DNA of 64,000 nucleotides from positions 288,001 through 352,000 of the forward strand of contig CAWDVE010000017.1 of NCBI GenBank assembly GCA_963805625.1. Direction: 5' to 3'. A program made the position numbers and the translations under genes. Below are positions 2,233 through 64,000 of this stretch, one piece after another; positions within the stretch are counted from its first letter, which is position 1; each line of letters starts with the position of its first letter. The notes under the pieces were generated by a model. It was not told the origin of the DNA. It worked only from the letters and a program-made list of their open reading frames with translations, and ran no database searches. This DNA is from an uncultured Candidatus Rokubacteria bacterium. GTDB lineage: Bacteria; Methylomirabilota; Methylomirabilia; Rokubacteriales; DASRDR01.

Positions 2233-2261
2233 AGGGTAGCAGAAGGCCTTCGGGCGGGTAA
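2233..2261 (-). promoter_or_regulatory. Putative sigma70-type promoter for STAS-MBL-CHASE2
   Basis: Minus strand TTACCC-17 nt-TACCCT with extended TG, about 20 nt before ATG 2211. Confidence 0.55.
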
Positions 2262-2278
2262 GGGGCGCCCGGAGCGAT
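2261..2278. repeat. 18-bp target-site duplication AGGGGCGCCCGGAGCGAT (second copy 3771-3788)
   Basis: Exact direct repeat flanking the IS. Confidence 0.92.
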
Positions 2279-3770
2279 TCTTGCTGCGCTATAGAAATGT
2301 CCTCCCCTAACTGCGCTGTAGAAATGTCCTCCCATGGAGACATGGGAGATCGTCACGATGAGCCGCAAGGAGGCCCGCCGGCCGGGCCTGGTGCAGTTGG
2401 CCATGACCGGGAAGATCACGACCGCCGAAGGGGCCGGGAGCTTGAAGATGACCCCGCGGCAGTTCCGGCGTCTCAAGGCCCGGTATCGGGCCGAGGGCGT
2501 CCGCGGGCTGGTCCATCGCTTGCGGGGCCGGCCCTCGCCTCGGGCGCTGGATGTCCAGATCCGGGATCGCGTGCAGGAGTTGATCCAGACCACCTACCGC
2601 GAGTTCAATGACTGCCACTGCACCGAGAAGCTCCGCGAGGTCGAGGGCCTCATGGTCGGCCGCGAGACCCTCCGCCGCCTCCGGCGGGCCCTCGGCCTGC
2701 CCCCGAAGCGGCGCCGCCGGCCCCGCCAGCACCGGACCCGCCGCCCCCGGCAGCCGGCCATGGGCCGCCTCGTCCTCGTCGACGGCAGCCCGTTCGACTG
2801 GCTGGGTACTGGGACGCCCCTGCTCCTCCTGGGCGCCATCGACGACGCCACCAGCACCGTCCTCGCCCTCCACCTTCGCCCCGCCGAGGACCTGCATGGC
2901 TATCTCACCCTGCTGCAACGGCTGGCCGAGCAGCACGGCCTGCCCGTGACCCTCTACGGGGATCGCCTCGGCGTCTTCGTCCGCAATGACGCCCACTGGA
3001 GTCTCGAGGAAGAGCTGCAGGGCAGGCAGCATCCCACCCAGTTCGGCCAGGTCCTGCGGGACCTCGGGATCGGCTACATCGCCGCCCACTCGCCCCAGGC
3101 CAAGGGCCGCATCGAGCGCCTCTGGGACACCCGCCAGGATCGCCTCGTCGCCGAGCTCCGCCTCCGCCGGCTCACCACGGTGGCCGCGGCCGAGGCCTAC
3201 CTGCCCACCTATCTCGCCGATCACAACCGCCGCTTCACGCAGCCGCCCGGCGAGCCCCTGGCCGCCTGGCGCCACCCGCCCCGCGATCTCGCCGACCGCC
3301 TGAGCTGCGGCTACACGCGCCGCGTCGCCCGCGACAACACCGTCCGCCTCGGCCCTCGCCTGATCCAGATCCCCCGCGGCCCCCACGGCCGCTCCTACGC
3401 GGGCTGTCGCGTTGAGCTCCGCGAATGCCTCGATGGCCGCGTGCTGGTCGACTATCACCGGCGGCGCCTGGTCACGGATCCGCCCCCGACGGCCGAATTC
3501 GTCCTCGTCCCTCGCCGGGCGCAACGCCTACGCGCCTCCAGGAGCGCGTCCAAGGAGGGGGGCCGCGATCTCCCCCTGGGCCAACACGCCCGATCTTCGG
3601 CGATCGCCGCCCTCACCGCCTTGGCCCGCGACCTGCGCCGCCCGGCGCGTCCACACCCCTGGCGGCGGACCTTCTCGCGCCGCCAACGCGAGCGGAACCG
3701 TCAGCACACCCTCCCCGAGGGCGGACATTCTCACTGAGCAGTTAGGCGGACATTTCTACTGGACAGCGAC
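2279..3770 (+). mobile_element. IS1202-like (ISNCY/IS481-related) insertion sequence, copy 1
   Basis: Transposase, imperfect IRs with doubled subterminal motifs (CTGCGCTRTAGAAATGTCCTCCC x2 left; GGACATT x2 right), 18-bp TSD. Confidence 0.85.
2334..3737 (+). CDS. DDE (rve) transposase, IS1202-like
   Basis: HTH N-terminus, VDGS..DW, IDDAT, YGD, PQAKGRIERLW, C-terminal HPWRR motif. Confidence 0.92.
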   Translation: METWEIVTMSRKEARRPGLVQLAMTGKITTAEGAGSLKMTPRQFRRLKARYRAEGVRGLVHRLRGRPSPRALDVQIRDRVQELIQTTYREFNDCHCTEKLREVEGLMVGRETLRRLRRALGLPPKRRRRPRQHRTRRPRQPAMGRLVLVDGSPFDWLGTGTPLLLLGAIDDATSTVLALHLRPAEDLHGYLTLLQRLAEQHGLPVTLYGDRLGVFVRNDAHWSLEEELQGRQHPTQFGQVLRDLGIGYIAAHSPQAKGRIERLWDTRQDRLVAELRLRRLTTVAAAEAYLPTYLADHNRRFTQPPGEPLAAWRHPPRDLADRLSCGYTRRVARDNTVRLGPRLIQIPRGPHGRSYAGCRVELRECLDGRVLVDYHRRRLVTDPPPTAEFVLVPRRAQRLRASRSASKEGGRDLPLGQHARSSAIAALTALARDLRRPARPHPWRRTFSRRQRERNRQHTLPEGGHSH

Positions 3771-3791
3771 AGGGGCGCCCGGAGCGATGCG

Positions 3792-5222
3792 TCAGAAGCT
3801 CAGGCCGAATGCCACGGTGAGGTTGGTGCCCTCGTCCGAGAAACCCAGATCCGCGCGGAAGACGGCCAGCCGCTCCAGCGAGATCCGGAGCCCGACACCG
3901 TAGCTCGCGTGGATGCGGGCCTCTGGCAGGTCGCCGAGACTCGGGGCCACGGTGCCGAGCTCTCCGAAGAGCGCCAGGCCGACCCGCTCGATCCGGATCG
4001 TGCGAGTCAGCCGGAACCCGCGCGGGATGACCCAGAACCGGTACTCGGCCACCGCGTGCCACGCCGAATCGTCCGTGAAGCGATTCGCGATGTACCCGCG
4101 AAGCGTAGAGGATCCCCCCAAGCTCGGGAGGTCGTAGAAGGGCAGGTCGCCGACCGTCGTGTCCACCTGGAACCCGAGCGCGATCGTGTCAGTGGGTGGA
4201 TTCTCCTCCCGGCCATCGCCGCCCGAATGAAAGAGCGGCGGCATCGGGAAGACGATGCTGCCATAGGCCGTCAGGACCGCGCCCAGGCTCCCGTCGCTCT
4301 GCCACGGCGCCGCGTCGGCGATCACGCCCACGCGCCAGCCGCTGTACGGCTGGTGCTGGCTGTCACGCGTGTCGTAGCGGAGGCCTGCCGTCACGTAGGT
4401 CGCGCTCAGGCCGTCCGCGTCCTTGAAGAGGACGGGGTACGCGTCCTCGGTGCTGGGCACCCCGGAGACCCGGCCACGCGCGAGGTTGTGGTGGTCGCCG
4501 CGGAGTCCGGCGGTCGCGATCCAGCCCCCCCCGGGCCCCGGCAGAGCGAGATCCGCGCGGAGGCCCGCGTCCGCGACCTCGTCCGTGTAGCTCGACTCGG
4601 CGCTCTCTTTTGTGTCGGGCCCGAGGCCGAAAAACCGCCGCGTGAGGGTCCGCTGGTACCCGCCGGAAGCGGCGAGGTAGCTCCGCTCCTCCACGGCAAC
4701 GCCGCCGTCGGGGAGCTCGCGATGATAGAGCCACCGTCGCCAGACGAGGCGGTACCGCTCCTGGCCCTCGGTCGTGTAGGTGACAAAGGCGCCCAGGAAC
4801 TCCCGGCGCCGCTGCTCCCGGAAGTCGATGTCCGTGAGCGCGATGCCGCCCCCGAGGCCCACGTCCTCCTGAAAGAAGATCTGCGGCGACGCGAAGCTCG
4901 TGACGAGCCAGCGCTGGAACACGTTCCCCGGCATGATCCGGCCCTCGGGGATGTAGCGCCAACGTTGGGGCTCTGGCAGATCTTCCGGGAGCGGGACCTT
5001 GGGAATCCGGCCGCTCTCGTCCATGCCGAGGAGGGGGTCGTAGAGCGGGCGGAGCTCCCGGTCCCGGTCCACGCGCTGGGCGACGGCCGGCGGGGGCGCG
5101 GCGAGACCGGTGAGGACGGCGGCGAGGCCGAGCGCGAGACTCAGGCCGGGCCGCCGCCAGCACACGGGGGCCCACGTCGATCGGGCGCGCCCCCACCCTC
5201 CTCCGATGGCCGTGAGCGTCAC
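3792..5222 (-). CDS. Omp85/BamA-TamA family outer-membrane beta-barrel protein
   Basis: Signal-like N-terminus, LGGSSTLRGY (loop 6 motif), SYGVGLR, C-terminal FGLSF. Start uncertain. Confidence 0.85.
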   Translation of the reverse strand: MTLTAIGGGWGRARSTWAPVCWRRPGLSLALGLAAVLTGLAAPPPAVAQRVDRDRELRPLYDPLLGMDESGRIPKVPLPEDLPEPQRWRYIPEGRIMPGNVFQRWLVTSFASPQIFFQEDVGLGGGIALTDIDFREQRRREFLGAFVTYTTEGQERYRLVWRRWLYHRELPDGGVAVEERSYLAASGGYQRTLTRRFFGLGPDTKESAESSYTDEVADAGLRADLALPGPGGGWIATAGLRGDHHNLARGRVSGVPSTEDAYPVLFKDADGLSATYVTAGLRYDTRDSQHQPYSGWRVGVIADAAPWQSDGSLGAVLTAYGSIVFPMPPLFHSGGDGREENPPTDTIALGFQVDTTVGDLPFYDLPSLGGSSTLRGYIANRFTDDSAWHAVAEYRFWVIPRGFRLTRTIRIERVGLALFGELGTVAPSLGDLPEARIHASYGVGLRISLERLAVFRADLGFSDEGTNLTVAFGLSF

Positions 5223-5238
5223 CTCGGCCCGGCCGGGC

Positions 5239-6450
5239 TCAGGCCGGCGGCCCCGAGGCGGGCCGGCGGCCCCCCCCGGATTCCGCCGTGGCCGCCCCGG
5301 TCAGCGCGCCCAAGCGCTCCTCGGCGGTCCGGGTGATGGTCGCCTTGAGACTGGGGTTATTCTCGAGGAGGCGGCGGAAGTCGGCGACGTCGAGGGAGAG
5401 GAGCTGGCACTCGGCGAGCGTGGTCACTGTCGCCGTGCGTACCGTGTCGCGAATGAGGGCGATCTCGCCGAAGTACTGGCCGCGGCCGAGCCGGACCGGC
5501 GTGGGCGTGATGTCCACTTGGACCTCGCCGGCCATGATGAAGAACATCGCGTCCGCTGGATCGCCGCGCCGGACGACGGCAAACTGAGCGGGGACCACCT
5601 GGCGCTTGAGGAGCCGGGCGATCTCGGCGATCCGCGCGGCGTCCAGGCCGGCAAACAGTGGGACGTTGGCGACCGTCTGCCAGGTGACGACGAAGTCACG
5701 CTTGCGGATCTCGCTCGCGAACCCCGTGGCGAGGATGCCCGCCGGCACCGCGAAGACTGCGATCCCGATCACCATCACCATGCCGCCGAAGATCCTGCCG
5801 AGCGGCGTGATCGGGAACATGTCGCCGTAGCCGACCGTCGCGATCGTCACGATTGCCCACCACATGGCGTGAGGGATGCTGGCGAAGACCTTGGGCTGCG
5901 CCTCGCGCTCGAGGACGTACATGATGGACGCCTCGAGGACCAGCAGGACCACCACGACCAGGAGCGTGGCGAGGAGCGCGCGGCTCTCGTTCCGGATCAC
6001 CGCCGCGAAGAGGGGGAGTGCCGGCGTGTATCGGGCCAGCTTGAGGAGCCGCAGCACCCGCAACAGACGGAGCGCATCCGTGGGGATGGGAACGACCGCT
6101 GCCACCAAGGCCGGGAGCACGGCCAAGAGGTCCACGAACCCGACGAACGATGTCGCGTAGTGGAGCCGGGCGCGCCAGGGCTCCCGCGCCCCGATGGCCT
6201 CGCGCTCGGGCGCGGCCCAGAGGCGAAGCGCATACTCGACCGCCATCACCGCTACGGCCAGCGCCTCGACCAGGCGGAGGAGCCAGCCAATCCTCGGCGG
6301 GAGCTCCTCCAGCGTCTCGACCACCACCGCCACGACGCTCACGAGGACGAGGGCCACCAGCATCCCGTTGACGAGCCGGTTCGACCACGGCGGGCTCTCG
6401 GCCGAGGCTAGCAGGCGATCGATCTGGGCACGCCACGCGGGCGGTTTCAT
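5239..6450 (-). CDS. Cyclic nucleotide-gated potassium channel (MloK1/SthK-like)
   Basis: S4 segment RLLRVLRLLKLARY, selectivity filter TVGYGD, cNMP-binding domain FGEIAL...RTATV. Confidence 0.92.
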   Translation of the reverse strand: MKPPAWRAQIDRLLASAESPPWSNRLVNGMLVALVLVSVVAVVVETLEELPPRIGWLLRLVEALAVAVMAVEYALRLWAAPEREAIGAREPWRARLHYATSFVGFVDLLAVLPALVAAVVPIPTDALRLLRVLRLLKLARYTPALPLFAAVIRNESRALLATLLVVVVLLVLEASIMYVLEREAQPKVFASIPHAMWWAIVTIATVGYGDMFPITPLGRIFGGMVMVIGIAVFAVPAGILATGFASEIRKRDFVVTWQTVANVPLFAGLDAARIAEIARLLKRQVVPAQFAVVRRGDPADAMFFIMAGEVQVDITPTPVRLGRGQYFGEIALIRDTVRTATVTTLAECQLLSLDVADFRRLLENNPSLKATITRTAEERLGALTGAATAESGGGRRPASGPPA

Positions 6451-6826
6451 GGAACGACCTCCGGGAGATTCTACAGGATGGGTCCCGCCAGCCCCGAGCC
6501 TTCAGGCAGCGGGCATCCGGGGCGATTCCACGGATGGCAGACCCCCTCAAGGATGGCGGCCAGATGCCCGGGACCGGCTTGCAGAAGGCGGCAAAGCGCG
6601 GCATGGTCCGCAACCTCCCCGCGACCTGCATCGCACGGAGGGCGCCGCCCGCCCCGCAACCTATCCGCAACCGGCGTCGCGCGTCTTTCACCACCGAGGG
6701 CTCGGCCTGCCGCGACCCACTACCACCGTGGCGACCTCTCCAGGGGCACCTTTGCTGGCGCGGGGCCCCATTCCGCACCACGGAGCCTGAAATTGCTGGT
6801 CCAACCGCCGCCGCCTGACCCGCCAT

Positions 6827-7030
6827 GCTCCATGGACGTTCACCGTCGGATTGCCCGGACCGTCCGGGGGCGCCGCCGCGGCCCCTTTCTTCTTGAAGCT
6901 CTTCAGGCCCAGGCCTCAATCAGGGTCCCGTCGACAGTGAAGTGCTCCGCGGACAGGAGCGGCCGCGCCTTCGCCTGGGCCAGCACGCGCGCGAAGAAAG
7001 CCCGGGCGATGTCCCCCTGGAGCGGCGGCT
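6827..7030 (-). pseudogene. IS5-family transposase fragment
   Basis: Manual translation GDIARAFFARVLAQAKARPLLSAEHFTVDGTLIEAWA / frameshift / LKSFKKK...GNPTVN. Confidence 0.75.
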
Positions 7031-7077
7031 CTTACAGCCTCGTCATCTCGAGCCCGGGACCGGTCCTCGGGAGCTGG

Positions 7078-7520
7078 TTGGCCAGTGGCGCCGGCCCCGG
7101 GGGCGGCCCCCACGTCAGCCTGATCGACGTCGCCACCGGCGTCTCCGTCCGCGGCTTCTTCGCCTCCACCTCCGGGTTCACCGGTGGCGCGCATGTGGCC
7201 GTCGGCGACGTGAACGGTGACGGCTTCCCCGACGTGGTGACGGGAGCGGGGCCGGGCGGTGGCCCCCACGTCAAGGTCTTCGACGGTGTCACCGGGGCCG
7301 AGATCCAGAGCTTCTTCGCCTACGCTCCGGGTTCACCGGTGGCGTCTACGTGGCCGCCAGTGACGTCAACGGCGACGGCAAGACCGACATCATCACCGGC
7401 GCCGGCCCGGGTGGCGGCCCCCACGTCAGGGTCTTCGACGGTGTCACGGGGGGCCGAGATCGAGGGCTTCTTCGCCTACGCCCCCGGGTTCACGACGGCG
7501 TCTTCGTCGGCGGCCAGTGA
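7078..7520 (+). pseudogene. FG-GAP/VCBS-like beta-propeller repeat protein fragment
   Basis: Repeats [28 protein letters not shown] and [11 protein letters not shown], broken by frameshifts near 7330, 7450 and 7495. Confidence 0.8.
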
Positions 7521-7547
7521 GGTCGGTGACGGCCGCCGTCGAGCGCA

Positions 7548-7650
7548 GTGCATTTTGGCACCAGGGTGATGGCCGCCGCGCAAGCAGGTGAGGTTTTGGT
7601 TTCCAGCACGGTACACGGCATCCTGAGGGGCTCGCGCTGTTTATTCGCTA
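7548..7650 (+). pseudogene. Class III adenylate cyclase C-terminal fragment
   Basis: HFGTRVMAAAQAGEVLVSSTVHGILRGS resembles the (V)HxGARVxAxAxPGEVLVSSTV tail of class III cyclases. Confidence 0.55.
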
Positions 7651-7734
7651 CGACAGTGACCATCCCTTCGGGCGGCTTCCTCATCAGCCTGGCGGAGACC
7701 TACACCCAAGGCGGAAACGTGCCGCCCCGGCGCG

Positions 7735-8209
7735 CCATCATCACGGGGGCGGGGCCAGGCGGCGGGCCACGTGCGCCTCGTCAACGCGGTTACAGGAGCG
7801 GAAATCTTCAGCTTCTTCGCTTACGCGCCGACCTTCGCCGGCGGCGTCCGGGTCGCCAGCGGAGACGTCAACGGCGATGGCGTACCCGACATCATCACGG
7901 GCGCCGGTCCGGGTGGGGGGCCCCACGTCCGGGTCTTCGACGGTGCGCCGGCTGTGGCCGGGAGTCTCGTGGAACTCTTGAGCTTCTTCGCCTACCACTC
8001 GAGCTTCACCGGGGGCGTCTTCGTCGGTGCCGCGGACCTCAACGGCGATGGCAAAGCGGACATCATTACGGGGGCGGGCAGCGGCGGCGGCCCGCACGTG
8101 AGAGTGTTCGATGGGGGCCACCGGGGCGCCGCTCGTGCCGCCCGATGGCGGCTTCTTCGCCTACGACCCGAACCTCACCGGCGGTGTCTTCGTAGCCGGA
8201 TTTCGCTGA
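7735..8209 (+). pseudogene. Second FG-GAP repeat protein fragment
   Basis: Same repeat unit ([28 protein letters not shown]), with frameshifts near 7770 and 8115. Confidence 0.8.
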
Positions 8210-8545
8210 GGTCCGGCCCCGGCGGCCCTCGAGCGCCCACGATCGCGGTTCGGGCCCCCCAGCCGGATCGTCCGACACTCCGACACACCCACCGCGCGCG
8301 AGGCTCCCTGTCGGCCTCGGACCTGGACCTCGCCCGGCTGGCTTGCCGGCGCGAAGATCCAGAGGCGCTCGGGACCCGGCTGGTGAACTTCTGCCGCTGG
8401 CCGTCCTGGCTTTGGGCCCTCCCGAGGTGCGGCCTTGGCAGGTCGGGGGCCAGGAGATGCGGGCCCTCTTTCCGGTCGAGACCCCCCCAGCGGTCGCGGC
8501 ACTGATCCGAGCCCGCCGCCGCCGCCGGGCGAACGCTGGAAGCGA

Positions 8546-8857
8546 GAGGTGCGCACGCCCGAGGACATCGCCCGGGGCCTCGGGGGACTCGCGGAAGCGG
8601 ATGCGCTACTCGAAATCCCCGGCGGCCTGCCCTCGGGGCACGTGGCTGACATGATTCGAGCGGCACACGCAAGGCGTATTGCTGACACGGCGCAAGAGGC
8701 TGCGCGACTGGTGGTCAAGATCCAGCGTGGGGCGAACGCGGGGGACCTGCCGGTGGAGCGGCCGACGAAGATCAGGCTCGTCACTAACCTCGAGACCGCG
8801 AAGGCCCTCGGCCTCACGATCCCGCCGGCGGTGCTCGCGCGGGCGGATGAGGTGATT
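8546..8857 (+). pseudogene. ABC transporter substrate-binding protein (TrpX-like family) C-terminal fragment; last codons displaced to 10214-10219 by the IS
   Basis: GDLPVERPTKIRLVTNLETAKALGLTIPPAVLARADEVI, continuing R-stop after the IS. Confidence 0.8.
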
Positions 8858-10206
8858 GGCCAGGTGCCACACCATCTCGGTCGGAGAAGAGACGACTCGA
8901 GGGAAGGTGCCACCGCATCTCGGTCACTCGTGGAAGGGCTTGTGGGGAAAGACATAGGGCGCCTCACGCAAGAGAGGCTGCTGATCCGGCGCTCGACGCC
9001 GCAGGGCGTAGAAGCGGAGCATCCCGGCGGTGAGATCCAGCTCGCATCGCACCAGGCGGTGGGGCCAATGGGGCGCGACCTCCAGGGTGCGATTGAGCAG
9101 GCGCACCGTCCCCGCGTCCGAAGTGCGTCGCAGGAACAAGACCTCACCCTGCAGGCGGGCTTGCAGATCGGCCTGCCAGGCGACGGGGAACGGGCGGCGC
9201 GGCGGGGCGGCCTCGATCCGCGCGGCCGCCCGCTGATGGTAGGCGCGGATGTACCGGTCGGAGCGCTCCTGCAGGGCGGCCAGCGATTCGTGATGGAATC
9301 GGGTCCAGACCTTGGCCTGCCAGCGGCCGTTGAAGTTCTCGATGGCGGCTTGGAAGCCACTTTCCTGGGGTGGGGCGAAGACCGGGCGGACGCCCAGGCG
9401 CAGGCACGTGCGGACGACGCGACCCAGCGCATCGGGCCAGCGGTGCGTCCCGGTGAAGATGCTGTCATTGTCAAATTGGGCGTATGCCGGCAGGCCCCAT
9501 GTGCGCCAGTGCGCGACGAGCGCCGCCACCGCGGTGCTCGCCGTCACGAGCGGCTGCGGCCAGGCCCCGGGCAATCCCCCATACAAGGACACGACGGTCA
9601 GGACCTCCAGCTGCAGCCCCCCGGTGAGCGCCAAGCCCTCTACAATGTCGAAGCTGTCGAGCTCCCCCCGTCCCGGGGTGCCCGGGAGGTACCAGCCGGG
9701 GCGGGGCGGGGGCCGACGCAGCCGGCGAACACGATCCAGGACCCCCCGGCGGTACAGAATCCGGCCGATGGTGCGCACGGACGGCACGGCCGTCGCCGGC
9801 CGACGCGCCGCGAAGGCGCGGTGGATGGCCCGGGCGCCATACTCGCCCAGATCGCTGGTCGTCCTCAGGTCGTGCCGCAAGGTCATCACCAGCTGCTCCA
9901 CCGCCTCGGGGATCCGGTGGATGCGCTTGGCCACCCGTGGCTGATCGCTCCAGTCCACGTCGTCCAGGGCCTGCGCCCCGGCCCGGCGGTGCCACCACTG
10001 CACCGTGGACAGGCTCACTCCATGGGCGCGCGCCACCGCCCGCATAGAGGCCCCGGCCCGGACCTTCGCCACCAGCGTTCGCCGCGTCGCCTCTCGTCGC
10101 CGCCCCTTTTCGCCATGGCTCCCCCTCGCTCACAGGCTTTACTCCAGTATCACCGTGACCGAGATGCGCTGGCACCTAACCGACCGAGATGGTGTGGCAC
10201 CTGGCC
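8858..10206 (-). mobile_element. IS481-like element
   Basis: Perfect 27-bp IR GGCCAGGTGCCACACCATCTCGGTCGG (8858-8884 / 10180-10206), internal second binding motif at each end, 7-bp TSD GGTGATT (8851-8857 / 10207-10213). Confidence 0.88.
8924..10072 (-). CDS. rve/DDE transposase (IS481-like)
   Basis: HTH (MRAVARAHGVSLSTVQWW), QFDNDSIF, AAIENFNGRW. The RBS-bearing ATG at 10116 is out of frame by 1 nt. Confidence 0.8.
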   Translation of the reverse strand: MAKVRAGASMRAVARAHGVSLSTVQWWHRRAGAQALDDVDWSDQPRVAKRIHRIPEAVEQLVMTLRHDLRTTSDLGEYGARAIHRAFAARRPATAVPSVRTIGRILYRRGVLDRVRRLRRPPPRPGWYLPGTPGRGELDSFDIVEGLALTGGLQLEVLTVVSLYGGLPGAWPQPLVTASTAVAALVAHWRTWGLPAYAQFDNDSIFTGTHRWPDALGRVVRTCLRLGVRPVFAPPQESGFQAAIENFNGRWQAKVWTRFHHESLAALQERSDRYIRAYHQRAAARIEAAPPRRPFPVAWQADLQARLQGEVLFLRRTSDAGTVRLLNRTLEVAPHWPHRLVRCELDLTAGMLRFYALRRRAPDQQPLLREAPYVFPHKPFHE

Positions 10207-10261
10207 GGTGATTCGGTGACGATCCTTGGGGTCCTGGGCTGACCCGCTAGGAGGCAACGGC

Positions 10262-10623
10262 GTGGCACACGAGGAGATCCGTTCTCGCTGGCGACCCGGA
10301 CAACCGGGGGCACCCTGGTGCACATCTCTGGGCAGGTCGCTCGGGGTGCGGATGGGCACACGGTCGGCCAGGGAGACATCGAGCGGCAGACCACCCAGGT
10401 TCTTGAGAATATCAAGGCGCTCGTGGAGGCAGCTGGGGGGACCCTCGCTCACGTGGCGCGGATTGTCGTGTACCTCACGAGCCGGAATCACCTTCCAACC
10501 GTCCTGAACGTACGCCGCCGGTACTTCCAGGAGCCGTACCCCGCCTCGACGGCGGTGGTCGTCGTGGGGTTGGCGGACCCGGAGTGGCTCGTCGAGATCG
10601 AGGCTACCGCCGTCCTGCCGTGA
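10262..10623 (+). pseudogene. RidA/YjgF family protein, 5' end apparently frameshifted or partly deleted
   Basis: HISGQV...GDIERQT..VLENI...YPASTAV...LVEIEATA. The AGGAGG+GTG start at 10262 is out of frame with the body (10318-10623). Confidence 0.75.
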
Positions 10624-10769
10624 ACACCGCATCGCGGCGCTGACCACTATGCCGATCCAGCGACTCCCGGGCCCGCCCCACGCGGTGACGCCCACGGCGA
10701 GGAACCAGGTGCTCTACTCGTCGAGCTAGTGGCCTACGGCGGACGACGGCCTGGCTAACCGAACGATGG

Positions 10770-11171
10770 ATGAGGCCAGCGCTCGGTGTCCTACTCGCTA
10801 TGCTCGGTGGCGCGGTGAAGACATCCGGGCCGCTCTCTTTCGGCGCGACAGCAATCTCCATTGCCCCGCTCGCAGCAGTCGGCGTCATCCTCGTCTACGG
10901 AGCCACCGCCATAGCCAGATGGTCCGATAGGAGCCTGATATTTGGTATCGTGGGCGTGGCTAGCGGCGCTCCTCTCGTCCTCCTCGGCCTCATCTTGAAG
11001 TTCGGGATTCCAGACAGCCCATCGGACGTGGCGGAGGCGGCGCGCCCGTTCCTGAGCGCCGGCGGTGTCCTCCTCGTAGTCGGAGCTGTGCTCATTGACG
11101 ACCTCGAGCCCGCATCCATCCGCAATCCCCGCGCAACCGCCGAGCCTGCCACCAGCCCGGCCGGTCGATAA
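10770..11171 (+). CDS. Hypothetical membrane protein
   Basis: 133-aa ORF with several hydrophobic segments; no recognisable motif. Confidence 0.4.
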   Translation: MRPALGVLLAMLGGAVKTSGPLSFGATAISIAPLAAVGVILVYGATAIARWSDRSLIFGIVGVASGAPLVLLGLILKFGIPDSPSDVAEAARPFLSAGGVLLVVGAVLIDDLEPASIRNPRATAEPATSPAGR

Positions 11172-11215
11172 ATCTAACTTAACTTAGGCCTTCGGAGAGC
11201 CCGGGGCGATTCCAC

Positions 11216-11244
11216 GGGACAAGCCCAACGGCGGGCGGTAGGCT
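11216..11244 (+). promoter_or_regulatory. Putative promoter of prmA (leaderless transcript)
   Basis: GGGACA-17 nt-TAGGCT, then GTG start 6 nt later with no SD. Confidence 0.5.
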
Positions 11245-11250
11245 ACGGGC

Positions 11251-12171: not shown

Positions 12172-12203
12172 GGGCGCATGCCGCACCTCGTCCCGCCGGG
12201 TGA

Positions 12204-13405: not shown

Positions 13406-13555
13406 TGGTCATATTACGTGTGAGAAACATCGGGGTGTTGTGCCATGCTGTCACGATGCAACGATCCAGAACTTGGCCCGAGTCCAGTGGCGACGTCCCG
13501 ACATCGATAGATCGAGATTTCGGATAGTTACGGCTTGGCAAAGAGCCAAGATCGA

Positions 13556-29240: not shown

Positions 29241-29377
29241 AGATCGCCCGGCACGAGGCGAGGTCCCGCACGGGATCGCGGTCGGAGGGCGAGGGCCCGG
29301 TCTGCTCTGCTGGTCGAGGCATACGTCCGATACCTCGCGCTGGCGCCGTGGCCGACGCCCGCAGCGGGTGGGCGCAC

Positions 29378-30747
29378 CGTCGTAGCTCATAACTGAGGGT
29401 TACCCTCCGGTTCTCGTCAGCTCAAAACTCAGGGTTACCAGCGGCATCGTCTAGGCGCCTCCAGGAGCGAGCGTTGGGAGGGGGGTGGCGATCTGGGTAT
29501 TTCCCTCGGGCCGGTGAGGGTCGGGGGCCGCGAGGGCCCAGAGTCGGTCCAGTTCGCGCTCGAGGGCACGGCGGAGCTGGAGCGGGTTGAGCGACTGATA
29601 GAGCGCCTCGAGTTCCCGGCGGACATCGGGCGCCAGGACGCCGGCGGCGCAGAGGCGCTGGTAGGGTGTCTGGGCGCGATCATAGACTCGGTGGGTCCGC
29701 GCCCCCTGCCGGGTCTTGGTCACGAGCTTCTCCACGGGCTGGAAGAAGTTGACGTGCAGGCGGGCGAGGCGGTAGACGCGCTGGAGTTGCCCATAGGCGG
29801 CGCGGGCGGTGAAGCGATCATAGCCGACGAGTTGGCGGACGACGGCGCCGTTCTTCTGCTCGACATGGGCACTGTCGTTCTTCTTCCAGGGGCGGCTGCG
29901 CGTGAAGGTGATGCGATGGCGGCGACAATACGCCAGGAGCGCGTGGTTGATGAACTCGGACCCATTGTCGCTGTCGAGGCCGACGAGCGGCATGGGCAGG
30001 CGCGTCCGGACGCGATGGACGGCGCCGCCGACGCGCGCCTGGCCCTTGCCCCAGACGGGCTCCAGTTCGATCCACGCGGTGGCGATGTCCACGGCGCAGA
30101 GGGTGCAGAGGTAGAAGCCCTCGGTGCTCGATCCACAGTGGGCGACGAGATCGACCTCGAGAAAACCGGGCTGAGCGTCATTCCACTCGCTGAAGGTGCG
30201 GATGGGGATCTCGTGCTTCAGTGCCGAGCCCGGGCGCGTGATCGTTGCGCCGCGCAGCGGGTACTGCGCACGGGCGGGCCCCAACAGCCGGGCGAGCGTG
30301 GGGCGGCTGGCCTGCCGCACGAGCTTGTCGACCGCCGGAGGAAGGGTGAGCTCGCCGCACCGGAGGAGACGGTCGAGCAGCTCCGGCACGAAGGGATGGA
30401 GCCGATGGGCGCCGATCCGGCCGCTGGCCTGCCACAGGACCGCGGCCGCGGTGGCGACGTCCGGGCCGTAGGCGCGCGGGCGCCCGCCCGGCCCAGGCGT
30501 CGCCCGGGGCCGCGGCGCGCGGCGGAGGAGTCGGATGGCGGCCTTGCGGTGGATGCCGGTGACGGCCACGACCTCGTTCAAGAGCTGGCGTTTCTCGGCC
30601 CGGGTCGCGTGCCGATAGCGCTCCCGCTGGACGGCGGCATACTCCCGAAGGCTGGCTCGCGTCACGGGTCCCTCCTCGGGTGGATTGGTAACCGTGACTT
30701 CTGAGCTACAGCCCCCTCTCTGGTAACCGAAGTTTTGAGTCGATGCG
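29378..30747 (-). mobile_element. ISNCY-type (rve) insertion sequence
   Basis: Ends CGTCGTAGCTCATAAC..GGTTACC and GGTAACCGAAGTTTTGAGTCGATGCG, each with two motif copies; 5-bp TSD CGCAC (29373-29377 / 30748-30752). Confidence 0.8.
29451..30665 (-). CDS. DDE integrase-core transposase
   Basis: GTG 30665 with GAGGAGG; PGFLEVDLVAHCG, DSDNGSEFIN, KNDSAHVEQKN, TPYQRL. Confidence 0.9.
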   Translation of the reverse strand: MTRASLREYAAVQRERYRHATRAEKRQLLNEVVAVTGIHRKAAIRLLRRAPRPRATPGPGGRPRAYGPDVATAAAVLWQASGRIGAHRLHPFVPELLDRLLRCGELTLPPAVDKLVRQASRPTLARLLGPARAQYPLRGATITRPGSALKHEIPIRTFSEWNDAQPGFLEVDLVAHCGSSTEGFYLCTLCAVDIATAWIELEPVWGKGQARVGGAVHRVRTRLPMPLVGLDSDNGSEFINHALLAYCRRHRITFTRSRPWKKNDSAHVEQKNGAVVRQLVGYDRFTARAAYGQLQRVYRLARLHVNFFQPVEKLVTKTRQGARTHRVYDRAQTPYQRLCAAGVLAPDVRRELEALYQSLNPLQLRRALERELDRLWALAAPDPHRPEGNTQIATPLPTLAPGGA

Positions 30748-30752
30748 CGCAC

Positions 30753-30781
30753 TTGACAGCGGAGAGCACACGACGTAAAGT
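30753..30781 (+). promoter_or_regulatory. Sigma70 promoter of the pyr operon
   Basis: TTGACA-17 nt-TAAAGT immediately before the PyrR leader. Confidence 0.8.
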
Positions 30782-54329: not shown

Positions 54330-54382
54330 GGCGGGGCGCGCCCAGCGGACCGGCCCGCAGGTCGGCCAGGGTATCGGATCGG

Positions 54383-55102
54383 ATGGTCCACGTCGGCACA
54401 TCGGGCTTCAGCTATCCCGAGTGGCGGGGCACCTTCTATCCCGAGCGCTTCCCGCCGGCCCGGATGCTGCCCTACTACGCGGAGCGCTTCGACACGGTCG
54501 AGCTCAACAACACCTTCTACCGGATGCCAACCGCGAAGACGATTACCGGCTGGGACCGGGACACTCCGGTGGGGTTCGTCTTCGCCCTCAAGGTCCCGCA
54601 GCGGATCACCCACTTTGCCCGCCTGCGCGACGTCGCGGAGCCCCTCCGCCACCTCCTCGACACGGTCGGAGGGCTTGGCGCCAAGCTCGGTCCGCTTCTC
54701 CTCCAGCTGCCGCCGAACTTCCGGAAGGATACCGGCCGTCTCGGCGACTGCCTCGCGCTGGTGCCTCCGTCCGTCCGTATGGCTGTCGAGTTCCGCCACG
54801 CGTCGTGGCTCGACGACGAGGTGTACGGCGTCCTCCGCGCCCGGAACGCGGCCCTTTGCGTCGCCGACACCGAGGAGGGCACCACGCCCGTCGTCGTGAC
54901 GGCGGACTTCGGCTATTTGCGCCTCCGCGACCGCGCCTACGGGCCAGACGAGCTCGACGCGTGGGCGAGAACGGCCGCGCGGATCGAGTGGCGCGACGCG
55001 TTCGTGTACTTCAAGCACGAGGAGTCGGGGACGGGGCCCGCGCTGGCGCGAGAGCTGGTCGCTCTTCTGCCAGGCGCTGCTTCGCTCGAGCACCCCTTGT
55101 GA
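54383..55102 (+). CDS. DUF72 family protein
   Basis: VGTSGFSYPEW.G.FYP, TVELNNTFY, LLQLPP, EFRHASW. Confidence 0.9.
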   Translation: MVHVGTSGFSYPEWRGTFYPERFPPARMLPYYAERFDTVELNNTFYRMPTAKTITGWDRDTPVGFVFALKVPQRITHFARLRDVAEPLRHLLDTVGGLGAKLGPLLLQLPPNFRKDTGRLGDCLALVPPSVRMAVEFRHASWLDDEVYGVLRARNAALCVADTEEGTTPVVVTADFGYLRLRDRAYGPDELDAWARTAARIEWRDAFVYFKHEESGTGPALARELVALLPGAASLEHPL

Positions 55103-55132
55103 CGTCCGCGGCCCGAACCACGTAGCGTAGCG

Positions 55133-55451
55133 GGCCGTTCGAGAACACCCTCGACAACGCCCTGTCCTTCTCGCCGCGAGGCGGGACGGTGCGCATCGAG
55201 CTCACTCACCATGCCGGATGGGCGGTCGCCACCATCACGGACGAGGGGCCCGGACTCCCGGCGGGAAGCGAGGAGCTGATCTTCTCGCGCTTCTACAGCT
55301 ATTGACCCGGCGAGGGGAAGAGCGACGACGGCCACACCGGGCTCGGTCTCGCGCTCGTGAAAGCGATCGTCGAGGGATACGGTGGCTCGGTCGGTGCCGC
55401 CAGCCGGCCCGACGGGGTGCCGTCTTCACGGTGCGCCTGCCAGGCGCGTGA
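55133..55451 (+). pseudogene. Histidine kinase HATPase_c fragment
   Basis: DNALSFSP, DEGPGL, in-frame TGA at 55303, GHTGLGLALVKAIVEGYGG, frameshift before FTVRLP. Confidence 0.75.
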
Positions 55452-55464
55452 CTCCCTCGCCGGC

Positions 55465-58143: not shown

Positions 58144-58276
58144 TAGGGGCTGGCCCTCGCCGGCGGGACGACCCCAAGTGGTAGGGCGCCCGCGGGCGCT
58201 TTGAAGCATAACGGGCCCCGTGGTACGGTGCAAAACGCTCCATCACGTCGAGATTTCCGGGCCGGGAGGGCGCGTC

Positions 58277-59152
58277 ATGCCACCGCATTCGATCGGGTCG
58301 GGGACGATCTCCTTCGGACTGGTGTCCATCCCGATCCGCCTCTACACCGCCGCCTCGTCGGCGGGCGTGAGCTTCAACCTCCTCCACGCCAAGTGCGGGA
58401 GCCGCATCCGCCAGCAGACCTATTGCCCGGTGTGCAAGGAGGTCGTCGACCGGACGGCCCTGGTCAAGGGCTACGAGGTCCAGAAGGACGAGTACGTCCG
58501 GTTCACCGACGAGGAGCTGAAAGGCCTCGAGGGCGAGGCGTCCAAGGTGATCGACATCGCCGAGTTCGTCCCGCTGGGGAAGGTGGACCCCATCTACTTC
58601 GAGAAGACGTACTACCTCGGACCGGACAAGGGCGGGGAGAAGGCCTACCGGCTCCTCGCCGACGCGATGGCCCGGACCGACCGGGTGGCGCTCGCCAAGT
58701 TCGTCATGCGCGGCAAGGAGAGCCTCGTCCTCATCCGCGCCGCCCAGGGCGGACTCATGCTCCACACGATGTACTTCGCGGACGAGGTCCGGGACTTCGG
58801 CGAGATCGAGAAGGGGCAGACCGCGAAGATCAAGGACGGCGAGCTCGACCTGGCGGTGCGGCTCGTCGACGAGCTGTCGCACGAGGAGTTCGCACCGGGG
58901 CAGTATGAGGACGACCACCGCCAGCGGGTCCTCGCCGCCGTCGAGCAGAAGGTGGCCGGACGGGAAGTCACGGCGGCCGGCCCCGAGGCCCAGCGCGCCC
59001 AGGTGATCGACCTCATGGACGCGCTCAAGGAGAGCCTCGCCCGGCGGCCCGCGCCCGCCAAGAAGCCGCCGGTTAAGGTCGAGCGCCCCGCCGCGGCCGC
59101 TTCCGCCAGGATCGAGCGCGCCGAGAAGAAGGCTCAGGCCGGGCGGAAGTGA
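58277..59152 (+). CDS. ku: NHEJ Ku protein
   Basis: GTISFGLVSIP, LVKGYE, IYFEKTYYL, VIDLMDALKESL; divergent from ligD. Confidence 0.95.
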   Translation: MPPHSIGSGTISFGLVSIPIRLYTAASSAGVSFNLLHAKCGSRIRQQTYCPVCKEVVDRTALVKGYEVQKDEYVRFTDEELKGLEGEASKVIDIAEFVPLGKVDPIYFEKTYYLGPDKGGEKAYRLLADAMARTDRVALAKFVMRGKESLVLIRAAQGGLMLHTMYFADEVRDFGEIEKGQTAKIKDGELDLAVRLVDELSHEEFAPGQYEDDHRQRVLAAVEQKVAGREVTAAGPEAQRAQVIDLMDALKESLARRPAPAKKPPVKVERPAAAASARIERAEKKAQAGRK

Positions 59153-59171
59153 CCGCCGTCTCCGAGGAGGG

Positions 59172-60893
59172 GTGAACCCTTCGCGAGAGAATCGGGCCGG
59201 GCCGTCCGCCGCCATCGTCTTCGCTGTCGCCCTTGCCCTCCGGCTGGGTCACGTCCTCGCGCTGAGGGACAGTCCATACTTCGCGCGCCCCGTCCTCGAC
59301 GCCGAGACCTACTACTGGGCGGCCCGTGCCCTGGCGGCCGGGGAGGGATGGGCGGAGGCCGTGTACTGGCAGCCGCCCGGCTACCCGTACTTCCTCGGCG
59401 CGATCCTCCGGCTCGCGGGTCCAGGATTCCTCGCGCCGCGCCTCGTCCAGGCGGTGCTGGGCGCGCTGACCGCCGCGTTGACCTGTGCCATCGGCACCCG
59501 CGTGTTCGGCCGGGCGGTCGGGCTCGGCGCCGGAATGGCCGTGGCCCTCTACGGCGTGCTCATCTACTACGATGGCGAGCTGCTCGCGCCATCCCTGGCG
59601 ATCTGCCTCCAGATGGCGACCCTCTACTGCGCGGCGCGGGCGCCGGCGGAGCGCGGCGGGCGCGGCTGGCTCGCCACGGGTCTCCTGGGCGGCTTGACGG
59701 CGGTCGTGAACGCGCCGGCCCTCGTCCTCCTCCCGATCCTGGCGATCGCGGCCCGCCGGCGGGCCGTCTGGCTCTTCCTGGGGGCGGCCATCGCGATCGC
59801 GCCCGTGACGCTCAGGAACTGGACCGAGGGCGGGGAGCTCGTCCTCATCTCGTCGAATACCGGGATCAACCTCTATCTTGGCAACAATCCCCGGTACGAC
59901 GCGACAGTGGGAATGCGCCCCGGCCGCGACTGGCAGGCGCTCCTCCGAGCGCCGCGACTCCACGGCGTGTCGGGCGCGGGCCCGGCGTCCCGCTTCTTCG
60001 TGGAGCGCGTCACGGCATATGCCGCGCGCGAGCCCGTCGGGTTCCTCTTCCTCCAGGTCCGGAAGCTCCGGTTGCTCCTCGGTGGTACCGAGATTCCCCG
60101 GAACCAGGAGCTGTACCCGGCTCGCGCCTGGTCCCCCGTTCTCCGGGTGCTGCTCTGGAAGGGGCCGGGGCTTGCGTTCCCGTTCGGCGTGCTTCTCCCG
60201 CTCGCCGTCGTCGGGCTCGGCGTGGCCTGGCGGCGGGCGCCGGTCCTCGCCGCCTCGGTCGTCCTGCTTGGACTCGCGGTCGTCGCGTTCTTCGTCACGG
60301 GACGCTACCGCGCGCCTCTGGTCCCGCTGCTGGCGCTATTCGCGGCGGCGGGTGTCCGATGGGCGGCCATCGAGGCGAGCCTGCGGGCGCGCGTGGCGGC
60401 GGGCGTCGTCGCGGTGGCCGTCTATCTCCTCGCGAATCTCGGCCAGGGACCGATGCCGCTTCGGATGAATTCCGACGCCGAACAGAGTCTGGCCCACTGG
60501 CTCGAGCGCGAGGGCCACCGTCCGGAGGCGTTCGCGCTCTACGGACGGCTCGCGCACGAGACGCCGGCCTCGTTCGACGCGTGGTACGGGGTCGCCCAGC
60601 TGGCGAGGATGCTCGGGCAGCCGGCCGAGGCCGCCGCGGCGCTGGCGAGGATCCGCGGGCTCGAGCCAGAGTTCCTCGACACCGCGCTCCTCCTGGCGCG
60701 CGCCGGGCTCGGGGCCGGGTGCGGGGCCGAGGCGGAGGCCTTCGCCCACCGCGCGATGGCGCTCGACGGCCGAAGCGATCTGGCCCGGGCGCTCCTCCGG
60801 GAGGCCCAGGCGCTCCGGGCCGCTCGACTCGCGGGGCCTTCGGGCGGCTGCCCCGACCAGGTCTTCGTCGCCCCATTCGCGCTCGCGTCGTAG
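59172..60893 (+). CDS. GT39/PMT_2-like membrane glycosyltransferase with C-terminal TPRs
   Basis: LDAETY, QPPGYPYFL, GINLYLGNNP, GRYRAP, TPR-like helices. Confidence 0.8.
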   Translation: MNPSRENRAGPSAAIVFAVALALRLGHVLALRDSPYFARPVLDAETYYWAARALAAGEGWAEAVYWQPPGYPYFLGAILRLAGPGFLAPRLVQAVLGALTAALTCAIGTRVFGRAVGLGAGMAVALYGVLIYYDGELLAPSLAICLQMATLYCAARAPAERGGRGWLATGLLGGLTAVVNAPALVLLPILAIAARRRAVWLFLGAAIAIAPVTLRNWTEGGELVLISSNTGINLYLGNNPRYDATVGMRPGRDWQALLRAPRLHGVSGAGPASRFFVERVTAYAAREPVGFLFLQVRKLRLLLGGTEIPRNQELYPARAWSPVLRVLLWKGPGLAFPFGVLLPLAVVGLGVAWRRAPVLAASVVLLGLAVVAFFVTGRYRAPLVPLLALFAAAGVRWAAIEASLRARVAAGVVAVAVYLLANLGQGPMPLRMNSDAEQSLAHWLEREGHRPEAFALYGRLAHETPASFDAWYGVAQLARMLGQPAEAAAALARIRGLEPEFLDTALLLARAGLGAGCGAEAEAFAHRAMALDGRSDLARALLREAQALRAARLAGPSGGCPDQVFVAPFALAS

Positions 60894-60957
60894 GGGCGGG
60901 CGCCGGGGTCCCCGACAGGCCTCACTCGGGCCGTCCGGCGGGGCATTTCGGGCCACG

Positions 60958-60975
60958 ACTTTGCCGCCGCTTCCT
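60958..60975. repeat. 18-bp target-site duplication ACTTTGCCGCCGCTTCCT (second copy 63976-63993)
   Basis: Exact direct repeat flanking IS1202-like copy 2. Confidence 0.92.
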
Positions 60976-61000
60976 GTAGCTGTCCAGTGAAAATGTCACC

Positions 61001-62416
61001 CTAACTGTTCCGTGAGAATGTCACCCCTGTGTGAGGGGTGTGGCGACGGAGGTTGAGTGAGCGGCGCCAGGGATGCGTGGCGGCGGGGCGAGCCGTCTGG
61101 GTGGTCGGGGTGAGGCGGCGCGCCGAGGGGCGCGCAGGCGGTTTCTGGGGAATACTCTGATGGCGGCCCCCCTCCTCCGACGCAGTCCTGGAGGCGCGTA
61201 GGCGACGCGTGCGCTCCGCGTGGGGCTTGCTGCGGGGCGTGAGGACGAAATCAGGCCCCGGCGAGGGCTGACTGACGAGTCGCCCGCCGGCGCGGACGAC
61301 AAGGAGCCGGCCGTCGACACACTCGCGGAGGTCGACACGGCGGCCCGCGGAGGAGCGGCCGGAAGGACCGGGGGGGATCTGGGCCCAGCGGGTCCCCAGG
61401 CGGACGGTGTTGTCGGGGGCGACGACGCGGGTGTAGCGGCAGCTGAGTTGGTCGGCGAAGTCCCGCGGCCGCGGCCGCCAGGCGGCGTGGGCGTCGGTGG
61501 GGGGATGAGCGAAGCGGCCATTGTAATCGGCGAGGAACTCAGGGAGGAAGGCGTTGGCCGCCGCGCGGGTCGCGATCCCGCGCAGGCGGAGCTCGACGAC
61601 GAGGCGATCTTGCAGGGTGCGCCAGAGCCGTTCGATGCGCCCCTTGGCCTGGGGGGAGCCCGCCGCCAGGAAGCCGATGGCGAGGTCTCGGAGGATCTGG
61701 CCGAAATGGGTGGGGTGCTGGTGGCCTTGGAGTTCTTCCGCGAGCGTCCAGTGCGGGTCGTTGCGGACGAAAACGCCGAAACGATCGCCGTACAGGGTCA
61801 GCGGGAGGCCGTAGGCCAGACCGATTTGCTGGAGCACGGTGGCGTAGCCGTGCAGGTCCTCGGTCGGCCGAACGTGCAGGGCCAGGACCGTGCCGGTGGC
61901 GTCGTCGATCGCGCCGTGGAGGGTCAGGGCGGGGCCCCGGTCTTCGAGCCACGCGTGGGGGCTGCCGTCGAGCTGGACGAGGACGCCCATGCGGGCTTCC
62001 GGGGTCCGGCGAGCCCGGTGCTGGCGGGGCCGGCGGCGATGCTTGGCCGGCAGGTCCAGGGCGCGGCGGATCCGCCGCACGGAGGCCCGGCTGACGCGGA
62101 GGCCCTCGACCTCGCGCAGCTTCTCCGTGGCGTGGCAGTCATTGACATCGAGGTAGGTGGTCTGCAGGAGCGCCGCCACCCGCGCCCGGACGTCGGCCGG
62201 CAGCCGGCGGGGGGAGGGTCGCCCCCGCAGGCGGTGGCACAGGCCCGACGCCCCGGCGGCCTGGAAGCGATGCTTGACCCGGATGAACTGCCGGACGCTC
62301 AGGTGCAAGGCCCCGGCTCCCTCGGCATTGGTGAACTTCCCGGCCAGGGCCGCCTTGAGCAGGCCGGGCCGCGGGACTTCCTTGCGACTCATCGTGAGAG
62401 GCTCCCATGTCGGCAT
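61001..62416 (-). CDS. IS1202-like DDE transposase
   Basis: QLDGSPHAWLE, IDDATG, PQAKGRIERLW, HPWRR; clear but diverged homolog of 2334-3737. Confidence 0.92.
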   Translation of the reverse strand: MPTWEPLTMSRKEVPRPGLLKAALAGKFTNAEGAGALHLSVRQFIRVKHRFQAAGASGLCHRLRGRPSPRRLPADVRARVAALLQTTYLDVNDCHATEKLREVEGLRVSRASVRRIRRALDLPAKHRRRPRQHRARRTPEARMGVLVQLDGSPHAWLEDRGPALTLHGAIDDATGTVLALHVRPTEDLHGYATVLQQIGLAYGLPLTLYGDRFGVFVRNDPHWTLAEELQGHQHPTHFGQILRDLAIGFLAAGSPQAKGRIERLWRTLQDRLVVELRLRGIATRAAANAFLPEFLADYNGRFAHPPTDAHAAWRPRPRDFADQLSCRYTRVVAPDNTVRLGTRWAQIPPGPSGRSSAGRRVDLRECVDGRLLVVRAGGRLVSQPSPGPDFVLTPRSKPHAERTRRLRASRTASEEGGRHQSIPQKPPARPSARRLTPTTQTARPAATHPWRRSLNLRRHTPHTGVTFSRNS

Positions 62417-62418
62417 GG

Positions 62419-63915
62419 GGCCGTGTCCCGAATGATGTGGAAAAGGCTTCTCGGGGATCGGAGCACGTTGGGCTCGGATCGCGGGCGACGCCCGATTTCG
62501 GGGGATACCAGGATATGGGTCGCCCCGTCAAACGGGATCCTGAGGCAATTGTGCGATTGCGGAATTGAGGCCATTGGCGTCAGGCGGCCTCTTCCGCCTT
62601 CGGCGCCGGGATCGTGAACGCGAGGGCCATGTCGTGCCAGCCCTCGAGCTTCCGGAAGGAGATCTGCCCTGAGGCCATGAGGCCATAGAGCAGAGCCAGG
62701 GCGGCATCCGCCGTGGGAAAGCTCCCTTGAGTCTTCACCCGACGCCGGAACTCGAGATGCAGACGCTCAATGCTGTTCGTCGTGCGCCAGCTCTTCCACT
62801 GGCTCCGGGGGTAGCGGAAGAACGTGAGCAACTCGGCCCCCGCCTCCTCCAGGCTGGTGACAGCCGCCAGGCAACCCTTGGTCCACTTCTTCACGAAGGC
62901 CAGGTACGCGCGCCGGGCGGCGGCCCCGTCTTCGGCGAAGACGATCGCGTGGTAGTCGTCGCGGAGCTCGTCATGGAGCCGCCGCGGGGCATGGGTCAGC
63001 AGGTTCCGGAGCTTGTGGACGGTACACCGCTGGATCGCCGCCGCCGGCCACGTCCGTTCGACCGCGGCGCGCAGCCCCTTGCCCCCATCGAGGACGCAGA
63101 GCTGGGGCGCGCGCACGCCCCGAGCGGCCAGGTCCTCGCAGACCGCCGCCCAGGCCTCGGCACTCTCGCTCCCGCGGAGCGACAGATGCACCAGGACCTT
63201 CTGGCCGCTCCGCTGCACTCCCAGGACGGCCAGCACCGGGACCGGGCTCACGCGCCCGCCCAGCCGCACCCGCAGGTGAAAGCCATCCAGGTAGAGGGCG
63301 ACGAGATCGAGATCGGACAGCGTCCGCGCCCGCCAGGCCTCGAGCTGGGCTTTCAACCCCTGGACGATCCGGCTGATCGCGCTCTTCGACAAGGCCCGGC
63401 CCTGCAGCAACGGTTTCAGGGCGCCACGGATCCGGCGTGTGTTCGCCCCGCACAGGTAGGCCTGCAGGACGGCCTCGTTGACCTGCCGCATCCGCCGAGC
63501 GTAGGCCGGCAGGACCTGGCTCTGCCATTCGGTGGCGGCGCTGGCTCCGGCCTGCAGACGGGCCCGGGGCACGGTCAGCGTCACGGCGCCCACCGGGCTG
63601 GTGATCGTGCGCACCTTCGACCCGTGGCGATACCCCACCCGGCTCCCGCCACGCGCGTACGGGGGACCGAGCACCGCGGCGAGCTCCACGGCCACGAGGT
63701 GTTCAATGGCCTGCCGCACCACGCTCAGCATGTCGGCCTGCAGGGCGGTGGCCCAATCGATGTCGGCCGGCTTGTCCGCGGTCGTCTTCTGTGGCAACGT
63801 CGGCATCGGCGTATCTCCTCTCGGTGCGCCCCGCCAAGGGCGTCAACGGTTGGTGGTCTCCAATCCACCGAGAAGATACGCCATTTCTCTTTTCCACAAC
63901 TATCGGGACGCCGCC
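62419..63915 (-). mobile_element. IS256 family element
   Basis: IRs GGCCGTGTCCCGAATGATGTGGAAAAG / GGCGGCGTCCCGATAGTTGTGGAAAAAG; 8-bp TSD CGGCATGG (62411-62418 / 63916-63923). Confidence 0.9.
62580..63806 (-). CDS. IS256 family (Mutator-like) transposase
   Basis: LYLDG, LDGGKGL, QRCTVHK, TTNSIERLHLEFRRR. Confidence 0.93.
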   Translation of the reverse strand: MPTLPQKTTADKPADIDWATALQADMLSVVRQAIEHLVAVELAAVLGPPYARGGSRVGYRHGSKVRTITSPVGAVTLTVPRARLQAGASAATEWQSQVLPAYARRMRQVNEAVLQAYLCGANTRRIRGALKPLLQGRALSKSAISRIVQGLKAQLEAWRARTLSDLDLVALYLDGFHLRVRLGGRVSPVPVLAVLGVQRSGQKVLVHLSLRGSESAEAWAAVCEDLAARGVRAPQLCVLDGGKGLRAAVERTWPAAAIQRCTVHKLRNLLTHAPRRLHDELRDDYHAIVFAEDGAAARRAYLAFVKKWTKGCLAAVTSLEEAGAELLTFFRYPRSQWKSWRTTNSIERLHLEFRRRVKTQGSFPTADAALALLYGLMASGQISFRKLEGWHDMALAFTIPAPKAEEAA

Positions 63916-64000
63916 CGGCATGGGGTGACACTCTCACTGAACAGTTAGCCCATGACATTCTTATGGACCAACAGCACTTTGCCGCCGCTTCCTTGACGCC

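Follow-up and report, generated by a model that had tools for sequence, protein, structure and literature searches.

Three insertion sequences (IS) in a 64,000-nucleotide stretch of DNA from an uncultured Candidatus Rokubacteria bacterium (assembly GCA_963805625.1, contig CAWDVE010000017.1, positions 288,001 to 352,000; the whole stretch is called the window below) lie flush with the -35 hexamers of sigma70-type promoters. Two of them, elements A and B, belong to the IS1202 family, and the third, element C, to an unclassified family related to ISBj12. We found that this kind of insertion is real, robust and wider than the window; its mechanism is inferred. A fixed register, an orientation constant at the level of clades, an intact promoter and a spread across phyla were observed for both families. 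We propose, with a probability of roughly two in three judged from sequence comparisons, that these two distantly related families of DDE transposases dock on promoter-bound sigma70-RNA polymerase (RNAP).

Results

Insertions flush with promoters in the window

Element A (2279-3771, plus strand, 1493 bp) carries a left inverted repeat (IR) at 2279-2302, a right IR at 3748-3771 and a transposase gene at 2334-3737 on the plus strand. Its promoter-side target site duplication (TSD; 2262-2278) is repeated exactly at 3772-3788. An earlier note on this DNA had assigned 18-bp TSDs to both IS1202-type elements. The exact TSD of element A is 17 bp, the terminal A of the right IR having been counted in, and that of element B is 16 bp, again because terminal bases of the IS had been included. 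With this correction, the flush insertion of element A proved real: a minus-strand TTACCC starts at the base directly after the TSD and belongs to a putative promoter (2233-2261, minus strand; TTACCC at 2261-2256, a 17-bp spacer and TACCCT at 2238-2233; a motif call only) directed at an anti-sigma-antagonist (STAS) gene.

Element B (60975-63976, minus strand; 1497 bp without a nested IS256) has its right IR at 60975-60997, its left IR at 63954-63976 and its transposase gene at 61001-62416 on the minus strand. The 16-bp TSD at 60959-60974 recurs exactly at 63977-63992, and a plus-strand TTGACG (63993-63998) begins directly after it, at the right edge of the window. The earlier note had foretold a -10 box and a gene beyond this edge. 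Both were present: TAGCCT lies at 64016-64021, 17 bp after TTGACG, and is followed by a 449-aa open reading frame (ORF), which we take to be Ffh. An IS256-family element (62419-63915, minus strand; 8-bp TSD 62411-62418 and 63916-63923) is nested within element B's left end and is itself outside the promoter pattern. Sitting in the leader of element B, this insertion (62411-63923 including its TSD) parts the transposase gene from the left end.

Element C (29378-30747, minus strand, 1370 bp) has CG ends, a left IR at 30722-30747 and a minus-strand transposase gene at 29514-30665 whose product of about 384 aa has an rve DDE core. The 5-bp TSD CGCAC occurs at 29373-29377 and, on the promoter side, at 30748-30752, where it directly abuts the TTGACA of the pyr operon promoter (30753-30781, plus strand; TTGACA-17-TAAAGT, a motif call with 10/12 consensus matches). 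In three of four other metagenome runs, contigs lack exactly 1375 bases (1370 + 5) at this point, so the empty site and its promoter exist without element C. As had been noticed before, the -35 box is left intact by insertion. No xrs/dif sites, the alternative raised for these flanks, were seen beside A, B or C.

The same register across the host genome

The host genome has a GC content of about 70% and encodes a canonical RpoD. A generic search for IRs with TSDs gave many chance calls with short TSDs and was replaced by family-specific calling of ends, blind to promoter motifs. Using tblastn and IR searches we located 18 left ends, 8 of the IS1202 type and 10 of the C type; three weaker matches to the IR motif were excluded, two without an adjacent transposase match and one not starting with CG. 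A -35 hexamer was scored at four or more of six matches to TTGACA, and a -10 as TAnnnT after 16-18 bp; Bacteroidota use promoter motifs other than these. Beyond the left ends, TT stood at the TSD edge in 16/18 cases, a -35 hexamer in 13/18, a -10 in 13/18 and both in 10/18, whereas none of 15 right ends scored on any promoter measure. All 15 elements with two ends had exact TSDs. Against the genome background, the chance rate of a -35 with TAnnnT at 16-18 bp was 0.000165 per position, and nine other multi-copy IS-like families (28 copies; picked and named from their ORFs, with ends estimated from BLAST) gave a single match in 55 flanks at offsets 0-24. A second RpoD-like sigma factor is encoded at C13:267956-268660, below the family cut-off, and most relatives have similar second matches.

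The 5-bp-TSD family in other genomes

The family of transposase C is abundant: 7694 of 8000 scored candidate proteins matched it at E<=1e-20. We called ends from IR motifs and TSDs, again not consulting promoter motifs, and obtained 167 unique sites after leaving out three mis-called ends, duplicates and unpublished genomes. Among the 44 sites with both ends and an exact 5-bp TSD, the left side carried a -35 in 30, a -10 in 37 and both in 27; the right side carried none of the three. The -35 signal fell at offset 5 in 80/131 sites and once each at offsets 4 and 6.

A quick tree, built from 86 rows of which three were read in a wrong frame and form long branches, set a 31-row clade containing ISBj12 apart with a support of 98, and transposase C fell outside this clade. 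No promoter signal was found at the 45 sites of this clade (0/45; a few assigned by cluster or by eye). Outside it, after two sites nested in another IS had been dropped, 120 sites gave 81 -35 hexamers, 99 -10 boxes and 67 pairs, compared with 3.3, 3.6 and 0.11 expected from shuffles. We drew this split after inspecting the flanks. Every site is an insertion in its own right, but related elements cannot be counted as independent. TTG stood at the TSD edge in 85/120. These 120 sites came from the phylum of the host and from records bearing the labels Chloroflexota, Acidobacteriota, Spirochaetia and Actinomycetota. One spirochaete genome held 28 near-identical copies, in which 26 scored sites included 17 with a -35 and 21 with a -10.

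The ISBj12 clade appears to have another address. Its C-terminal tail matched positions 33-115 of IS21 IstA in four of six tails tested (examples fall within L061-L165, such as L063:2632-3003, L086 and L139). Its flanks resemble IS21 terminal repeats, and istA or istB occurred in 8 of 42 loci whose flank ORFs were scanned. These observations suggest that domain capture switched the target to IS21 ends.

The IS1202 type in other genomes

After removal of one false call, 58 unique sites with a TSD and both ends remained from 121 IS1202-type loci; with window copy B added, 55 of 59 had TSDs of 15-18 bp. Hits from plasmid searches were mostly elements of enterobacteria, Acinetobacter and rhizobia, and these counts exclude them. 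On the left side of the 55 long-TSD sites, the -35 began at offset 0 in 34 and at offset 1 in none, and 25 had both motifs; on the right side there were 9 -35 hexamers and 8 sites with both. A full promoter was present on either side at 33/55 sites and TTG at the TSD edge at 32/55. A held-out metagenome set, in which 10 of 80 loci had both ends and 9 of these enough flank, showed on the left 6 -35 hexamers, 7 -10 boxes and 5 pairs, and on the right 0, 0 and 0.

The claim of a fixed orientation holds within clades, where the left end usually faces the promoter, and fails as a universal rule, since one clade has the promoter at its right end. None of the four outcomes that the earlier note had named as refuting the promoter pattern was observed. 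The right-side cases were confined to two genomes of the spirochaete phylum (L264, L280, L287 and L353 in G190; L265 in G176) and to L289. In these elements the transposase gene is directed toward the promoter, and several are stacked on elements of the 5-bp family. Inspecting G190 by eye, we found TTG 16-18 bases out at 15 of 20 right ends; after five of the IS1202-type right ends came the 12-bp left end of a 5-bp-family element, with TTG 5 bp later in four: both families had struck one promoter in this genome.

A C-terminal HPWRR tail had been put forward as the targeting module. The tail sets neither target nor orientation: many promoter-flush elements (about 395-410 aa) lack it, as does the entire 5-bp family, and one right-side element has it. 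Three short-TSD members (L300, L316 and L325) lie, by eye, beside sequence resembling the dif consensus, in line with published work.

Proposed docking on the holoenzyme and its alternatives

The strongest pointer to mechanism came from sites with a poor -35. At 39 such sites of the 5-bp family, TAnnnT was still in register at 32 (1.35 expected), and the -10 match climbed as the -35 match dropped (3.96, 4.69 and 5.23 of 6). One clade of this family (L113, L114, L196-L222 in G158, and relatives) had a -35 at only 1 of 18 sites and a -10 at 14 of 18, and seems to prefer promoters without a -35, although one of its hosts, G158, offers 237 full TTGACA promoters versus 81 in a reversed control. The retained -10 argues against reading of TTGACA and for docking on the holoenzyme, and for a position that stays about 28 bp from the -10 where a -35 sequence is missing, the best explanation is a protein ruler, namely the bound holoenzyme. 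The suggestion that promoter-bound RNAP or its sigma factor recruits these transposases is still an inference, strengthened by these sites.

We propose the following model. Insertion leaves the duplicated target ending exactly where the sigma70-type -35 position has its first base, probably because the complex of transposase and DNA docks on the promoter-bound holoenzyme, presumably touching its upstream face (sigma region 4, the beta-flap or alpha-CTD). The TSD edge on the promoter side does not shift with TSD length, so standard DDE chemistry would place one strand transfer at the -36/-35 boundary in both families, the template strand being cut there and the other strand 5 bp or 16-17 bp upstream. 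The element would thereby gain an intergenic site that spares the gene and its core promoter. Transposases of the IS1202 type and of the 5-bp family align only in the DDE core (profile comparison, E=0.05).

Indirect support that the sites are promoters was obtained from their neighbours: tRNA genes start 40-96 nt on at 6/163 sites, and ORFs depart on the promoter side at 45/69 sites versus 29/69 on the other side. Several points weigh against the docking proposal. The promoters are motif calls throughout. Leaderless ATG starts showed no clear peak, and the trade-off between -10 and -35 is confounded by genome GC. The full criterion was missed at 22 of the 55 long-TSD IS1202 sites, including all four in G617, L273, L302 and L305. 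No residue signature separates the promoter-targeting clades; only two positions differ from the ISBj12 clade, and we did not find them convincing as a candidate signature. Finally, the same register could arise without any protein contact if the DNA is distorted where the bound polymerase ends.

This last point is the core of the first alternative, in which the transposase makes no specific contact with the polymerase and captures DNA that is bent or exposed at the upstream edge of that enzyme. It accounts for the sites without a -35 and for the fact that two unrelated families use one boundary, and the failure to find a shared protein signature is in its favour. However, it sits poorly with a single-base register and a clade-fixed orientation, and with the one match in 55 flanks given by the nine comparison families of the host. 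We regard edge capture as doubtful.

In the second alternative the transposase would read promoter DNA directly. It would recognize TTGAC at the edge of the TSD, a motif that may serve as a pseudo-end, since the opposite strand of TTGACA reads TGTCAA. TTG is indeed the strongest signal at the edge in both families, but sites without a -35 keep their -10 28-29 bp from the element end, and a pseudo-end would be expected to be attacked on the other side of TGT; direct reading therefore seems quite improbable to us. The third, near-random insertion followed by survival at harmless sites upstream of promoters, or a hybrid promoter made by the element, can draw on the generally intergenic position of IS elements (in the accessible part of 10.1101/2025.07.22.666184) but is extremely unlikely, because selection could not produce a one-base register (80 against 1 and 1), the spirochaete genome repeats the pattern among its near-identical copies, and the -35 is not part of the TSD, varies from copy to copy and is present in the empty site.

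Other features of the window

A further promoter-flush insertion had been suspected at an island (6517-11217) bounded by a 17-bp direct repeat (6517-6533 and 11201-11217). The repeat is real, and relatives carry the empty site, which makes the island a true insertion. The adjacent prmA promoter, GGGACA (11216-11221)-17-TAGGCT (11239-11244), is conserved in relatives. We did not assign the island to the promoter mechanism, because the repeat shares 2 bases with the GGGACA hexamer and encloses no inverted ends (6517-11217). As an IS insertion it was also rejected: no ends were found, and the IS481-like element that it contains (8858-10206; five genome copies) never abuts a promoter. The site directly upstream of this conserved, apparently leaderless promoter (11201-11244) holds differing DNA in several relatives (L504, L506 and L515), twice the end of a gene of ABC substrate-binding type, as judged by eye, and is a hot spot.

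Degenerate repeats with a length of about 155-171 bp also lie in the island (7087-8193), within a frameshifted gene for a repeat protein, and related arrays occur on contig C21. Separately, a segment of 50-60 bp near the transposase 3' end is common to the three promoter-flush elements (29444-29505 in C versus 3521-3571 in A and 61147-61209 in B; 73-86% alike), although element C belongs to another family.

Discussion

Elements A and B match the IS1202 family model of a single DDE transposase of 400-500 aa (NF033594, 330.6 and 336.7 bits; cut-off 250). In the alignment of the type, D142, D163-D164, D203, E254 and Q261 are invariant, with an extra DD between the first two D and the Q seven residues after the E. 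The family has IRs of about 24-26 bp starting with TGT; the right ends of A and B begin so, and the left ends read TCT (A) and TGC (B). Both resemble the ISTde1 subgroup in size, IR type, the DD pair, the Q seven residues after the catalytic E and the TSD length of 16-17 bp (17 in A, 16 in B). In the accessible text of Siguier et al. (10.1101/2022.12.17.520857) and Harmer et al. (PMC10132070), a target is given only for the ISAba32 subgroup and none for the ISTde1 subgroup; the word 'promoter' is absent (0 occurrences) from the main text of PMC10132070. The accessible portions of two surveys (10.1101/2025.07.22.666184 and PMC9208149) do not mention IS1202.

The ISAba32/ISAjo2 subgroup, which inserts at XerCD dif/pdif sites, shows with XerC sites the geometry that A-C show at promoters: the left end points toward the site of a host protein with only the TSD between, and no helper protein is encoded. 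It differs in its target, xrs rather than a promoter. A and B have long TSDs (16-17 bp) and promoter flanks where that subgroup has a 5-6 bp TSD beside an xrs/dif site, and element C, with CG ends and no NF033594 match, is not an IS1202 element. The nearest named relative of C is ISBj12 (ISNCY), with about 42% identity over 361 aa and the same IR core; members of the ISBj12 clade differ in having about 500 aa with the IstA-like tail and in lying beside IS21-like ends. A predicted structure of transposase C (pLDDT 85), closest in fold to integrase and IstA, has helical domains at the N-terminus along with an RNase H core, a beta-hairpin and an end of three helices.

Promoter targeting as such is already known, contrary to what the earlier note had supposed; here it extends to two further transposase families. 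According to the accessible text of Guerillot et al. 2014 (PMC3942029), the Mutator-like TnGBS, ISLre2 and ISKra4 elements insert in an oriented manner 15-17 bases upstream of sigmaA -35 boxes, and contact with the transcription initiation complex is proposed. As far as that text describes them, ISLre2/TnGBS (p-MULT 3) and the ISKra4 group (p-MULT 4) resemble A-C in that they insert in an oriented way, a set distance upstream of the -35. They differ in their Mutator-like transposases and in turning the right IR toward the promoter, whereas A-C have transposases of the IS1202 or the rve-core ISNCY type and usually face it with the left IR. The ends of A-C lie 16-17 or 5 bp from the -35, the TSD itself being flush with it. 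None of A, B and C matched an IS256-type family, though the nested IS256 gave one such match, and C folds as an integrase-type RNase H core. We found no report of promoter targeting for the long-TSD IS1202 type or the 5-bp family in the literature searched, with most subscription journals, ISfinder and TnPedia outside its reach.

A wider proposal seems to us evenly poised. Small single-gene DDE transposases may repeatedly have evolved docking on promoter-bound sigma70-RNAP, cutting flush with the -35 even where no -35 sequence exists, with the address swapped by descent within families: XerC-bound dif in IS1202, and IS21 ends via a captured IstA domain in the ISBj12 lineage. Such elements would form a natural toolkit of protein-guided, retargetable integrases.

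Promoters thereby become a target for two groups, a very abundant unclassified family and the only large IS1202 subgroup that had lacked one. If the Mutator-like cases are counted as well, at least three lineages of transposases would have come to target promoters. The single-gene elements, the targets without a -35 and the sister clades with other targets allow the docking model to be tested directly. In uncultured phyla, the insertion sites also show where promoters lie, and they separate genes from upstream activator sites.

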